NCBI GenBank assembly: GCA_016207885.1
Contig: JACQZE010000003.1
Coordinates: 421,117 to 485,116 of the forward strand
Direction of reading: 5' to 3'
Length of the DNA: 64,000 bases
Origin: Nitrospirota bacterium
Lineage (GTDB): Bacteria > Nitrospirota > Thermodesulfovibrionia > UBA6902
The first letter of the stretch is position 1, and every line of letters begins with the position of its first letter. Of this stretch, positions 25,691 through 33,913 are shown one piece after another. A program made the position numbers and the translations under genes. The notes under the pieces were generated by a model, which saw nothing but the letters and a program-made list of their open reading frames with translations, was not told the origin of the DNA and did not search any database.

Positions 25691-25725
25691 TTACCTGTTC
25701 TTATTCTAAAGTTATGGAATCTATC

Positions 25726-28441
25726 TTAATCGTCCTTATATCTCCTGAAATTCTTTACCAGCTTTTCAAAGGTATCCGGCTTATACTTTTCAAAGTCTCC
25801 TTCATCCACAAAGACAAAATTAAACCTGCATTTTTTCTGTGATGCATTGATGTCCGCGCACCAGTTTTTCAGCCGTTCCATTTTCAAAGGCACATCAAGG
25901 TCTTCAAGGCCTTTCGTCTCCACAATATATGTTTCCTTTTCATTGGCCTTGACTATAAAGTCCGGGTAGTAATTTGAGATGCTGCCGTCGGCAGTCACAT
26001 AGTCGAGCCTGAAATGAACGGCAAGGTAGTTCTTTGCGTAAGAAATAATATCTGGGCATTGCTCCAGGAATGATGCAAAGAGGAGTTCAAGGCGGCTGTC
26101 TCCGATGATTTTATTGAAGATGCTTTTTTGAGGAATGAGAAAGCCCTGATCCTTCACAACAAACGGCCTTGTCTGCCGCAATTTAATATAGTCCCGTATC
26201 TCGGCGCTTCCTTTATCAACCACTGTAAGCTCATTTATCTTTTTCTTGAATGTCTCAATTATAGTCTTGCTTGCCTCAAGCTCAGAGAGATTGCGGATTG
26301 TGTTCAGATCGTCAATATCCGCAATCCTGTCAAACAGATGTTCGGCTATAAAGGTTTTTACCTTTCCATAAAGCACATCATAACCGCTTATCAGGCGGAG
26401 GTCTTTCATAATGACCTGTGCAAAGTAGCCGATTACGCTCCGGCAATCGGCAGCCATTGCCGAATCAAGATATGTCGTGTGCGTAATCTCACCGGTTGTT
26501 ATATCTTTAAAAACAATCTCCCTTTTCTCCTCTTCGGAAAATTGCCTGTACTCCACCTTTCTTGTGCCGAACATTGAGGGCGCAAGCTCTTCAAGATTTT
26601 TGTATTCCCTGTATATCCTTGGGGAAAGCACAGGGATTTCTATATCAAGCCCGTCAATGTCCTTTTTCCTGTTTTCATTGTCTATCTCAATAATGATCGG
26701 CGCCTTTGCAGCAGTGCCTTCACCCATCGGCTTGCGCTCAAGCTCAACGCCCTCGCTCTGGATGGACTCAACAAAATCCATAAAGGCATTGGTCCCGACA
26801 ACGCTGACATACTCTGTCGTATCAGTTCCCGGATACATCCTTCTCAATCCCCGGCCGAGCGTCTGCTCCGGCAGGATATTGCTCTTTGCTGCATACGCCC
26901 TTAAGCCGACGATGGTAGTTACGTTCCTGACATCCCAGCCTTCCTTGAGCATGAGGACCGAGACAATTGCCTTATACTGGCTTTCCATTCCGTCAATCTT
27001 GTTGGACGCCTTTCTCAGCTTTTCAAGCTCATCTTTGGACTTCTTAGAATCAGCCTCGGAGATCTCACCGTTATTGTTCGTATGAATAACAAGCACGGCG
27101 TCTTTAAATTCAGGATAAGTATTCTCAAGATGTTCTGCCACATCATCACAGTTTTTTGTGTCATCCGTCATTATGAAAAGCACAGCCTTTTTACTCATCT
27201 TCTCATGTTCGGCATATGCCTTGCGCCATTCTTCCACGCCAAGCGCAATATAGTCAGCGTATTTTTCCGTATAGCGTGAGCTTTGACGCTCCTGAAGTTT
27301 TGTCCGGCTTGCCGCATCCGGCAATACGGGATGCTTGACCACGTTCTGCGTAATTGCCTCAACAAGCGGATAATCCGAGACCGTCTGCACAAAGATCGCC
27401 CCGTTATTGTGCTTGGGAGTTGCCGTTACATCTATTTGCAGAGAGAGGAAATGGTCCTTCTGCTTCAGGCGGTTGTGGATGTCTTCAATGGATTTAAACC
27501 ACGCCAGACGGTTGTCATGGATGTGGTGAGCCTCATCATTAATGACAATAAGCTCGTCAATTTCACGGACAATGACACCGAGGTCAACCTTTGAGTCAGT
27601 GGTTTTACCCGTGGGCCTTTTACCGAGAAAGTAGTCCGTCAAATCATCATCGTCAAAGTTCGGCTCAATGTCATCTCCGGCATATACGCGATGGATATTT
27701 GTGAGAAAGATATTGCCGGTCTTTCGGATAATGGACACATCATCCTGAATATGCAAGGTCAGTTGAAAATCGTCCTGCCAATTCCTGCCCTCATAGCCAT
27801 TATCCGGCAAGAGCGGGTCATCAAAGAAAACCCGAAGCCCGTCAAAGTCAGCACGAAGACGGTCAAGGACAATAATATTAGGCGCAATGATAAGGAAGTT
27901 TGTTGACAGCTTTGAATCAGGCTCATAGAGCTTGTGGAAATAACACCATGTAACTACGAGGCTCATAACCTTTGTCTTGCCGCTTCCGGTTGCCATTTTT
28001 ATGACAAGACGAAGCCAGTCTTCATAAAACATCCCTGCGGATACCGCTCCTGATGAGTCATAACGTATCAGGTCGTATTTGTCTTTGACCTTAACAACTT
28101 CATAGAGATAAATAACCGTTTCAATAGCCTCGCGCTGGGCAAAATAATAACGAAACTCATACCCCCCTTTATTTCCCCCCTTATCAAGGGGGGATTGAGG
28201 GGGGGTAAGGAATAATGTGTTCCGTTTTGAACCACCAGTTAATCAGGGCTTTGCTTGTTTCAGTTGCGCCATCATAACCGGAATCACGCCATTGTTTAAC
28301 ATCCCTTCGTATTTTATTGACCAGCGGAGGCAGGAGTTTGCCATAACTTGATTCCCACAAAGCCTCATCAGCCGGAAACCAGCGGATATCGGGATGAAGT
28401 ATTTCATAGGAGGAATTTGGGAATGAAGGATGAATTGCCAT
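25726..28441 (-). CDS. res: type III restriction enzyme Res subunit (helicase), split by a frame change inside a palindromic-repeat insertion
   Basis: The 768-aa ORF 25726..28032 starts at Walker A (TGSGKT) and carries the DEAH box (IVINDEAHH) plus a C-terminal endonuclease region. The N-terminal 85 aa (28184..28441, ...ALINWWFKTEHIIPYPPSIPP) are in another frame. The helicase frame reads through the repeat as ...SLPPLNPPLDKGGNKGGYEF... back to a stop at 28240. Confidence 0.6.
28156..28210. repeat. palindromic element copy inside res (at the frame break)
   Basis: ataCCCCCCtttatttCCCCCCTTATCAAGGGGGGattgaGGGGGGGtaagg contains C6-7 and G6-7 homopolymers. Confidence 0.75.
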
Positions 28442-28672
28442 AGTCTTTAAATGAATTTTAGATTTAGTTTACATTTCATAACTTATTAATTTTTAAGGGC
28501 TTTCAACTTATGCTAAAGCTGTTCTAAATCAATTATAGATTTAATTAACAAGCGTCCAATACGTTACATCCCTTGTACCCACTTCAGATTTTGCGTCTAA
28601 ATAGCAACCCTCTGATTCTACAAGAAAATATCAGGGATCCTGCCTTTCTAAACCCTATCGTCTAAATAACGA

Positions 28673-32544: not shown

Positions 32545-33668
32545 TATTTAAACAACTGCAAGTAGGCAGCGAACACATACATCTTGCCCCGCTTGCCGCC
32601 GGTGATTTCTTTAAGAATACCGAACTTTTCCAGATCAACGATCAGTTTGTACGCCGATGCCGGTGATATTTTCGTTACCTCGCCTACTTTGGCGGCATCA
32701 ATCATCGGGTGTTGATACAAGTAATTGAGAATCTTCTGTGCGTTTGCCGTTCTGCTGCCCAGTGATTGTATCTGGTTATCCACCTGCTTTTGCAGCTTGA
32801 GGATGTTGTCAAAAGTGGAAATGCTGCTTTTAGCGGTTTCGATAATTCCCACCAGAAAAAACTTGAACCATTGCAGCAGGTCGTTCTTCTCTCTCACCCG
32901 CATCAGGTTATCGTAATAATGCGTGCGGTTGCGCTCGAAGAAATCCGACAAGTACAATACGGGCTGCTTCAATATTCCCTTGCTTACAAGATACAAGGTA
33001 ATCATCAACCGCCCCACGCGGCCATTGCCGTCGAGGAAAGGATGAATGGTTTCAAACTGGTAATGCACCAGTGCAATTTTTAACAGTTCCGGGAAATACC
33101 GGGTATCGTTATGAACAAACTGCTCAATATCACCCATCAACTCGCCGATAGAGGTATGCACCGGCGGCACAAAAACAGCATCGTCAATGGTTGCCCCGCC
33201 TATCCAGTTCTGGCTTCGCCTGAATTCACCCGGCTGTTTATGTTTGCCGCGCACGCCCTTCATCAAGGTCTTATGTGTCTCCATAACCAGGCGAGAGGAA
33301 AAGGGAAGTTTCTGCAACTTCGCAATCGCCCCGTTCATGGCCGCTACATAGTTCTGCACCTCTTCCCAGTCGTCCCTTTTATCCGGGGCAACGTCCTCCC
33401 TTTCCAGAAGTGCCTCCTCCATATTCGTCTGCGTACCTTCGATCTTGCTGGATTGAGTGGCTTCTTTCAGCACATGCATTCTGATGAAGAGGTCAATATT
33501 GGGGATGTAGTCCGAATACATATCCAGCCGGCCCAATTCACGATCCGCCTGTCCAAGCAGCTGAATCAACTCCATGTTGTCCAGCACCCAGGCCCGGTTG
33601 ATAAAGTTGGGCTGAAAGCTCTTGTAATGCCCTTGCTGCACATAACGGCCAGACTGAAACTTTTTCAT
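32544..33668 (-). CDS. Fic-family protein (AMPylase-type fold)
   Basis: Fic motif HPFLDGNGRVGRLM. 374 aa. Confidence 0.8.
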   Translation of the reverse strand: MKKFQSGRYVQQGHYKSFQPNFINRAWVLDNMELIQLLGQADRELGRLDMYSDYIPNIDLFIRMHVLKEATQSSKIEGTQTNMEEALLEREDVAPDKRDDWEEVQNYVAAMNGAIAKLQKLPFSSRLVMETHKTLMKGVRGKHKQPGEFRRSQNWIGGATIDDAVFVPPVHTSIGELMGDIEQFVHNDTRYFPELLKIALVHYQFETIHPFLDGNGRVGRLMITLYLVSKGILKQPVLYLSDFFERNRTHYYDNLMRVREKNDLLQWFKFFLVGIIETAKSSISTFDNILKLQKQVDNQIQSLGSRTANAQKILNYLYQHPMIDAAKVGEVTKISPASAYKLIVDLEKFGILKEITGGKRGKMYVFAAYLQLFK

Positions 33669-33827
33669 CTGTGTGTCCTTACCTTATATGAAATTAAAAT
33701 AACCGGCATTGTTATTTTAGATTATACGTAAAAACTAAAATAATGCAACCCTTATTTTAGTTTTCGTACAAAACGTGCAACGTATTGGTTACGGATAAAG
33801 GATTTAGGTACGATTTATGTAACGACT

Positions 33828-33913
33828 GCAAAAAAAAATGCGCGGACTTTTGAGCCCGCGCACATGATATTCCGGAAATAGTAATAAAACCTATATCGCC
33901 GCCTCTCCCCTCT
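33828..33913. repeat. direct repeat copy 2 = authentic glnB 3' end + intrinsic terminator
   Basis: A8 followed by TGCGCGGacttttgagCCCGCGCA. It overlaps the last 8 codons of glnB. Confidence 0.7.

Follow-up and report, generated by a model that had tools for sequence, protein, structure and literature searches.

The 64,000-nt stretch of DNA analysed here (the window) comes from a Nitrospirota bacterium (GenBank assembly GCA_016207885.1, contig JACQZE010000003.1, positions 421,117 to 485,116 of the forward strand). Its glutamine synthetase gene, glnA, and its P-II gene, glnB, are convergent, and between them lies the island of defence genes that is the subject of this study. It holds a type III restriction-modification (RM) operon, with a Schlafen/GHKL gene between mod and res, and a Fic gene of the SoFic type. 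The island genes are found on the minus strand only, in the order Fic (33668-32544), mod (32365-30077), AlbA_2 + HATPase_c_4 gene (30080-28673; hereafter the accessory gene) and res (28441-25726). Annotation of open reading frames (ORFs) and Pfam domains agrees in strand and order with a preliminary description made from the sequence alone, whose coordinates and gene identities were right overall; what it missed is one frameshift in each of res and the accessory gene, which breaks their reading frames. The features of the locus are as follows (L and P numbers are handles for compared loci and proteins):

24210-25622, plus strand: glnA, glutamine synthetase, the left flank (Pfam Gln-synt_C/N; glnA with convergent glnB also in L008, L010 and L011)
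25646-25679, plus strand: intact intrinsic terminator of glnA, a 15-bp stem with a T-run, just past which the island begins (a homologous hairpin follows glnA in L008)
25726-28441, minus strand: res, restriction subunit of the type III system, made a pseudogene or an OFF allele by a +1 frameshift (ResIII, RE_endonuc, PADLOC REase_III, NCBIfam BPTD_3080)
28163-28206: 43-nt nested G6/C6 palindrome in res, whose outer run is a C7 (G7 at 28199-28205) and constitutes the frameshift
28673-30080, minus strand: Schlafen/AlbA_2 + GHKL (HATPase_c_4) + C-terminal helix-turn-helix (HTH) gene of the 'Schlatpase' type, a pseudogene (Pfam matches on its two halves, PF04326 and PF13749)
30077-32365, minus strand: mod, intact, 762 aa (N6_N4_Mtase PF01555, E 1.1e-41; PADLOC MTase_III, E 5.5e-111)
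30526-30568: 43-nt nested G6/C6 palindrome in mod, translated in frame
32464-32544, minus strand: repeat copy A, a remnant of the last seven glnB codons plus terminator (32495-32470), now ending Fic
32544-33668, minus strand: SoFic-type Fic AMPylase gene, intact (Fic_N + Fic; motif HPFLDGNGRVGR, inhibitory motif SSKIEG)
33669-33764, minus strand: Fic promoter/operator region, with a 13-nt perfect inverted repeat AAAACTAAAATAA/TTATTTTAGTTTT at 33731-33764, a TATAAT and further TTATTTTA motifs (33692-33730)
33832-33913, minus strand: repeat copy B, the true glnB 3' end plus terminator (33863-33838)
33891-34238, minus strand: glnB, P-II, the right flank (Pfam P-II; synteny in L008 and L010)

Beyond glnB the genes glnE-lptF-lptG run divergently from it. 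Relatives with the same synteny, i.e. glnA and glnB convergent and glnE (with or without lptFG) next to glnB, came from a scan of metagenomes with GlnA. In two of them (L010 and L011, GlnA 75% identical) the tblastn matches of glnA and glnB end 113 and 96 nt apart, i.e. the site is empty, and in a third (L008, GlnA 80% identical) the interval of 1.17 kb holds an unrelated 161-aa ORF and rpsU. The interval is thus variable among relatives, and the 8.2 kb of the window are an acquired island inserted after the glnA terminator. All ORFs in 25700-33913 were accounted for and none encodes a recombinase, nor was an integrase found in the island or its flanks. The proposal of an integrase-less defence island between glnA and glnB has therefore been confirmed, and the comparison of relatives that it called for yields an empty site of ~95-115 nt. 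Other searches gave less context: a GlnE scan found two relatives at 62-63% identity, on contigs that both start at glnE, and exact-protein look-ups with GlnA and Mod found no match. With GlnB two short Logan contigs only were recovered, one from the same organism (L001, SRR12113402), which is 100% identical to the window across glnB-Fic, and one from a 90% relative (L002), which stops inside the terminator downstream of glnB.

Mod is 100% identical to P0241, a protein encoded on a 514,766-nt contig of an NCBI 'Nitrospirae bacterium' metagenome-assembled genome (MAG). The Mod/P0241 backbone is 98-100% identical to those of P0261, P0271 and P0274, whereas the target-recognition region (~aa 200-375) is unrelated (0-40% identity), which suggests that specificity has been swapped recently among Nitrospirae type III systems. 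The mod and res genes have the same strand and the usual order, but a 1.4-kb gene stands between them. This arrangement is conserved. The triad of N6_N4_Mtase, AlbA_2/HATPase_c_4 and ResIII genes occurs in L085, L086/87, L088/89 (Nitrospirae YQR-1), L090/91 (Desulfovibrio legallii), L092 and L093, i.e. it was seen in at least six genomic contexts besides the window, and in L085-L093 its genes overlap stop to start by 4 nt or 1 nt. Wherever the flanking genes of a close homolog were returned, a restriction or helicase gene lay directly downstream of the accessory gene. In Haloferula, on Acidovorax plasmids and on Picosynechococcus pAQ3 the order is hsdM-hsdS-X-hsdR, where X is the accessory gene (L094, L108, L109), and on a Desulfosarcina plasmid it is DUF499-DUF3780-DUF1156-X-PLD-helicase (L110). 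Plain mod-res dyads of the same Mod/Res family also exist, on Aminobacter and Sinorhizobium plasmids (L190, L191), so the SLFN/GHKL gene is an optional but recurrent accessory. One observation concerns the locus with its closest relative (L085, 1-1305; 91% identity), where all that is left of mod is its first ~30 codons fused to its last ~60, and both the SLFN/GHKL gene and res are unbroken. Here the triad has decayed by another route.

The accessory gene is therefore not the unusual passenger that it had been taken for: it belongs to a conserved, coupled triad, it has type I and DUF1156/PLD contexts as well, and papers of 2026 describe proteins of its kind. The suggested association with type III systems does recur, in the contexts just given, but it is not limited to them. 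In PMC13462974, Schlafen homologs with ATPase and DNA-binding domains are described as 'tightly associated' with RM, bacteriophage exclusion (BREX) and type I CRISPR (clustered regularly interspaced short palindromic repeats) systems. A preprint (bioRxiv 10.64898/2026.05.29.728809) reports a 'Schlatpase' (SLFN-GHKL) supradomain in 58.6% of prokaryotic SLFN proteins, including a stand-alone gene in type I RM operons, and for SLFN-pAgo it reports that the SLFN domain cleaves tRNA and that the GHKL domain drives ATP-dependent oligomerisation (tetramerisation). Toxin-like accessory genes are known to be carried in RM operons (PMC3506569), and PrrC is embedded in an hsd locus (PMC12707154, PMC1484252).

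In the window the accessory gene, previously drawn as a single gene at 28673-30080, consists of two overlapping ORFs of 235 and 271 aa; the frame shifts near 29403-29412, outside any homopolymer. The start of the gene overlaps the stop of mod (GTGA, 30077-30080). Its homologs (more than 120 clusters) are uninterrupted and typically 469 aa long (nearly all 467-473 aa), and those from Nitrospirae, Desulfovibrio, Verrucomicrobia and other groups share 63-91% identity with it. In the family E17 and E22 do not vary and D56 is at least 90% conserved; the window copy keeps the two glutamates but has N at position 56. By work on SLFN13 and SLFN11 these three residues would be the catalytic carboxylates of the Schlafen site (E-x4-E ... 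D), of which the third is changed in the window copy (D56N). An AlphaFold model of an intact homolog that is 91% identical (P0001; pLDDT, the predicted local distance difference test, 80.9) matched in structure first the uncharacterised 3LMM, next the nuclease N-domains of SLFN13, SLFN5 and SLFN14, and then GHKL kinases.

By analogy with PrrC in EcoprrI and with the tRNA-cleaving prokaryotic Schlafens, the accessory protein is most likely an RM-linked second-line RNase effector, and its description as an accessory defence factor remains plausible. Its Schlafen RNase would stay inactive until a restriction-linked signal, e.g. inhibition of the enzyme or DNA ends, triggered cleavage. The accessory gene is dead along with res while mod survives, and this fits a role on the restriction or toxic side. 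We consider it unlikely that the AlbA_2/GHKL/HTH protein instead controls transcription of the RM operon in the manner of a C protein, or that it is a structural part of the restriction complex. Its C-terminal HTH-like region is conserved, it is coupled translationally to mod and always just upstream of the R gene, and an older COG label of the family is 'predicted transcriptional regulator'; but the invariant E-x4-E and the conserved D in a Schlafen fold argue for catalysis, and the prokaryotic Schlafens that have been characterised are tRNases. Homologs that have no RM partner and lie beside integrases or tail genes in prophages also speak against such a role, as does the fact that the Mod/Res family functions elsewhere as a plain dyad.

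The res gene had likewise been described as one gene (25726-28441), and is in fact split by a +1 frameshift into an 85-aa N-terminal piece (28441-28184), which stops at TGA TAA within the palindrome, and a 768-aa ORF in another frame (28032-25726). The shift lies in the C7 run of the palindrome (G7 on the plus strand), and when one C is removed from this run a 904-aa Res results, colinear with five homologs of 892-898 aa; the helicase and endonuclease domains are present and the ORF is not intact. Both this frameshift and that of the accessory gene are found in L096, a Logan contig from a different run (SRR12113406) that is 100% identical to the window over 30054-28175 (1880 nt). The two lesions are therefore real in the population and not an artefact of a single assembly.

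It is well known that type III RM genes can vary in phase by means of simple repeats (PMC7383803). The res frameshift could be a phase-variable OFF state, with the G/C homopolymers of the palindrome as a contingency tract, or low-level +1 slippage on CCC-C could still yield Res. This would account for the position of the shift exactly in the C7, the other three runs in res and all four in mod being 6 nt long. However, 7 nt is short for efficient slippage, the run is C7 in both assemblies, and the neighbouring accessory gene has a frameshift outside any homopolymer as well as D56N, a sign that selection has been relaxed on the restriction arm as a whole; a phase-variable state is for these reasons improbable. 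The RM module is decaying, by the +1 frameshift in the C7 of res and by the frameshift and D56N of the accessory gene. With these two genes frameshifted it is not a working system, and since only mod is intact the operon acts at most as a solitary methyltransferase. The intact genes of the island are mod and Fic only.

The preliminary description did not include the two palindromes. Their pattern, A-C6-N5/6-C6-TTRNYAA-G6-N5/7-G6-T, has two copies in the 64 kb against ~0.02 core matches expected by chance, and each copy forms a two-tier hairpin when folded. Compared with homologs, 14-16 codons stand in place of 4-7 loop codons: in res ~16 aa stand in place of 7 aa (net +9 aa), and in mod the loop is 6 aa in most homologs and 12 aa in some. 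Both are read in the same frame through the inner hairpin (SPLxKGG), and in res one extra C in the outer run is what makes the frameshift. Two distant Mod homologs (P0298 and P0326) have a similar 16-aa peptide at the mod loop, and P0274, with a backbone 98-100% identical, has a short loop. Two other identities were rejected, a G-quadruplex because there are just two G-runs per strand, and a CRISPR repeat because there are two copies, 2.36 kb apart and both in genes.

At the same mod loop P0261 has an in-frame DUF559 domain (PF04480, E 5.6e-31), flanked by the peptides PPDKGGKGG and PPKSPLSGG, which the two halves of the palindrome encode. Hairpins of this type flank DUF559 genes in four phyla. 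In the hsdR gene of Haloferula (L094; positions of note 9918-11281, 1241 and 2195) a DUF559 insert lies between 38-nt inverted repeats (92% complementary), each with an inner hairpin. At the same locus hsdR also has nested palindromes of the solo form and hsdM has two partial copies, and all five motif matches of its 17.4 kb are within hsdM or hsdR. On plasmids, DUF559 genes that stand alone have G/C-run hairpins of like design on both sides, in Pseudanabaena (L213 3801-4480; 40 nt, 100% complementary) and in Picosynechococcus and Deinococcus (L211, L214 3903-4333; 35 nt, 86%). Two of the stand-alone genes are in or next to DUF1156 methylase genes and one is in a catabolic operon. On these comparisons the window palindromes would be ORF-less derivatives of a hairpin-bounded DUF559-endonuclease element, and a deletion between the two inner hairpins of such an element would yield a solo palindrome.

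The 64-kb window contains no DUF559 match, and a search of IMG/VR with the DUF559 insert of P0261 gave none. A scan of IMG/VR for the palindrome core found 78 loci, many with an extra outer G6/C6 run and ~57% inside long open frames; none of the 78 has a P0261-like DUF559 gene nearby, and their enrichment over chance is estimated to be modest. The counts of palindromes in RM genes (2/2 in the window, 5/5 in L094) are post hoc. It is possible, and we put it forward tentatively, that these sequences represent an undescribed mobile element, in which a gene for a DUF559 (Vsr-like PD-(D/E)XK) endonuclease with hairpin inverted repeats would insert in frame at surface loops, home between homologous genes, colonise or persist preferentially in RM genes, and seed slippage-prone G/C runs that switch restriction off. 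Just as tentative is the separate idea that the SLFN/GHKL gene upstream of R genes (type I, type III, DUF1156/PLD) is a general PrrC-like guardian RNase of ATP-dependent restriction enzymes. A 2024 review of MITEs (miniature transposable elements with inverted repeats; PMC10969869) does not mention DUF559, and the literature on elements combining DUF559 and hairpins was not searched.

Three further observations concern hairpins and DUF559 genes elsewhere. An IMG/VR viral contig (L183, 4071-11351) has 11 copies of a C6-TTNNNAA-G6 hairpin with an adjacent G7 run in 7 kb, three of them at 198-nt spacing and several in long open frames. On a Synechocystis plasmid (L212, 3331-5855) a DUF559 gene separates a 175-aa DUF1156 fragment from the next ORFs, as if the methylase gene had been split, and no inverted repeats were detected there. 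Finally, the empty glnA-glnB site of L010 contains at 1630-1672 a nested palindrome of like architecture, CCCC..CTCCCCTTAAGTTAAGGGGAG..GGGG, with a DNA fold of -19 kcal/mol (z -5.3).

The Fic gene, at the other end of the island, matches the PADLOC SoFic profile over its full length (PDLC03963, E 2.3e-121, residues 11-373). Its Fic motif, HxFx(D/E)GNGRxxR, reads HPFLDGNGRVGR, and its intramolecular inhibitory motif, (S/T)xxxE(G/N), reads SSKIEG. SoFic was reportedly described as a single-gene system by Millman et al. in 2022. It is known as a single-gene anti-phage system, an abortive-infection AMPylase (Sofic/AS1, PMC12249575), and AMPylation and anti-phage protection are predicted for the window gene. 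Among the matches listed, the homologs form 120 clusters at 85-94% identity in several phyla, so the gene is clearly mobile, and elsewhere the same lineage is usually nested in the hsdS-hsdR interval or has toxin-antitoxin genes around it. Fic loci in unrelated contexts are homologous to the window in nucleotide sequence from 33764 up to the stop codon at 32544 and no further; the mobile Fic unit therefore excludes the flanking repeat. In alignment the operator region, which starts 96 nt upstream of the ATG, is conserved with the gene in these contexts, so its repeats are probably an autoregulatory operator.

Fic is flanked by imperfect direct repeats, as the preliminary description had noted. 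Copies A and B (81/82 nt) are identical at 70 of 83 positions (84.3%) with two indels, a 40-nt core pattern was matched in 0 of 100 shuffles, and in both copies there is a terminator with an 11-bp stem and a T-run. What copy A retains of the end of glnB reads RGDVAI* and copy B is the true end (RGEAAI*), i.e. the repeat is a duplicated glnB tail plus terminator, and this part of the earlier account was also correct. The coding part of copy B is identical to L002 and that of copy A has diverged. In the resulting arrangement both glnB and Fic finish at a terminator, and mod retains an upstream region of its own.

The same account had read these repeats as an att-like insertion, in which the Fic cassette would be a small integrative element that uses the glnB 3' end and terminator as its target, brings its own copy of the target along and relies on a recombinase encoded elsewhere. 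The position at a gene 3' end that is restored, with direct repeats of 81/82 nt on both sides, and the mobility of Fic across phyla (85-94% identity) are what such an element would give. Five other Fic loci (78-88% identical modules), however, all lack flanking direct repeats, which for these loci answers in the negative the question of whether the cassette occurs with its repeat elsewhere. The island and flanks lack an integrase, the common Fic module stops exactly at its stop codon and excludes the repeat, and the copies are only 84% identical and show no clean attL/attR mosaic against L002, the informative sites being split about evenly. The junction also lies in microhomology. At the other loci an AGAGGG(A/G) resembling a ribosome-binding site follows the Fic stop immediately or within 13 nt; the glnB tail is GAGAGGGGAGAGG, and the window junction is TAA|GAGGGGAGA, which leaves a purine-rich 6-7-nt microhomology (GAGGG(G)) at the only junction that needs explanation. 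The absence of repeats from other Fic loci and the position of the junction in microhomology favour an illegitimate crossover over att-type integration, which we regard as distinctly unlikely.

The repeat arose most likely when two divergent forms of the locus were joined, of which one had Fic and the other the RM operon next to glnB. The join would consist of one homologous crossover and one illegitimate crossover in the GAGGG(G) microhomology, and the incoming part could be Fic or the RM operon. An old duplication may also have produced the repeat, or a trans-acting recombinase may have done so. A profile of identity between the window and L002 across glnE-glnB gave no donor signal.

Taken together, the interval is, with a probability of roughly 0.7, a recombinase-free island of two independently mobile modules between the glnA and glnB terminators, in which the repeat arose by the crossover join and the palindromes are ORF-less copies of a DUF559 element. 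The first module would be a partly decayed three-gene type III operon (mod-SLFN/GHKL-res), whose middle gene, a recurrent accessory, is coupled to mod in translation, and the second a self-contained SoFic gene with its own operator and promoter. That the frameshifts are sequencing or assembly errors and the island fully functional is highly improbable: the source is a MAG and one of the two shifts lies in a homopolymer, but the separate Logan assembly of another run has both at 100% identity over 1880 nt, the accessory-gene shift is outside any homopolymer, and the window's large genes are uninterrupted (e.g. ORFs of 1361 and 1329 aa).

Several points nevertheless weigh against the two-module reading. 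Distant homologs of the accessory gene (32-45% identity) are found alone on plasmids, next to methylases, in a type I operon, and in prophages by integrases or a tape-measure gene; those that are alone in prophages and on plasmids indicate that dependence on RM is not obligatory, and the effector role of the SLFN/GHKL protein in RM operons is putative, being drawn by analogy. The C7 run could in principle revert, so the 'decay' of res may be reversible. In the non-coding part of the repeat both copies are about equally distant from L002, which fits an old duplication as well as a join of two lineages. Finally, no relative with an intermediate arrangement (glnB-Fic only or glnB-RM only) was recovered, L002 ending in the terminator, so the order of events and the crossover model are what we infer from the present arrangement.

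Other features of the window lie outside the island. A block at 21103-23989, immediately upstream of glnA, holds a second P-II gene, which is 77% identical to glnB in nucleotide sequence over 354 nt, and after it an amtB-like gene and a 227-aa ORF; L007 and L008 have this block too. The mechanically called glnE ORF starts within glnB on the opposite strand (34111-34300), and since its homologs match from ~residue 60-75 the real start is probably further downstream. A cyclic di-AMP riboswitch (RF00379, 92 bits) is at 43626-43760, upstream of a 603-aa ORF (43826-45637).

The island itself is of known, ordinary kinds (a type III RM system with a Schlafen-ATPase accessory, and SoFic), and by itself it adds little: it is one more hotspot of known defence modules, partly dead. 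The most interesting item of the interval is the DUF559-related palindrome pair. If confirmed, a small selfish nuclease element that inhabits restriction genes but does not destroy them would mean that defence systems are parasitised at a new level, and the palindrome/DUF559 element would be a new source of in-frame protein insertions that may create on/off switches. The Schlafen-GHKL gene keeps a fixed place, translationally coupled, between the genes for modification and those for restriction in type III, type I and DUF1156/PLD systems alike, and is 63-91% identical across phyla. Its intact triads in Desulfovibrio legallii and Nitrospirae YQR-1 are good material for studying how RM-linked Schlafens are triggered, the question left by the 2026 papers.

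We compared the elements of the island with the known systems that they resemble. The type III operon shares with EcoP15I-like mod-res operons an N6_N4_Mtase core with a swappable target-recognition region, a ResIII helicase with a C-terminal endonuclease, and mod upstream of res; it differs in its third gene between mod and res, its frameshifted res and the in-frame palindromic inserts in both. The accessory protein resembles the RM-associated Schlafen-ATPase proteins ('Schlatpase'; Cluster 7 of PMC13462974), which also combine AlbA_2/Schlafen and GHKL ATPase domains (with a DNA-binding domain) inside RM operons. Here and in at least six other contexts, however, its gene lies within a type III operon and overlaps mod stop to start, whereas the stand-alone example given in bioRxiv 10.64898/2026.05.29.728809 is of type I RM, and the window copy is a pseudogene. 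The PrrC anticodon nuclease of the EcoprrI (type Ic) hsd locus is likewise an NTPase + RNase accessory gene between modification/specificity and restriction genes, and is thought to fire upon restriction inhibition (PMC12707154, PMC1484252). Its fold is unrelated (an ABC-ATPase with the PrrC nuclease, compared with GHKL and Schlafen here), so the analogy is positional only.

The Fic gene resembles SoFic (Sofic/AS1, PMC12249575) in its full-length profile match, in its Fic_N, Fic and C-terminal domains and in its canonical Fic and inhibitory motifs; it differs in that no AS1-like ORF is apparent directly downstream, where repeat copy A stands instead (short ORFs there were not listed), and in that its lineage is usually nested between hsdS and hsdR elsewhere. 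The join at glnB has the marks of homology-facilitated illegitimate recombination, i.e. no recombinase, a 6-7-nt microhomology at the sole non-homologous junction and a foreign segment beside a conserved anchor gene, but the outcome is an 81/82-nt duplication rather than the usual deletion, and donor or recipient intermediates were not found among the loci recovered. The palindromes, finally, are most like the Rickettsia palindromic elements and intragenic MITEs (PMC10969869), short palindromic repeats that lie in frame in coding genes and are tolerated as extra surface peptides. The window copies differ from these in being 43 nt long as against ~150 nt, in being built of G6/C6 runs, in apparently deriving from a DUF559-nuclease element, and in being concentrated in RM genes at the loci seen.

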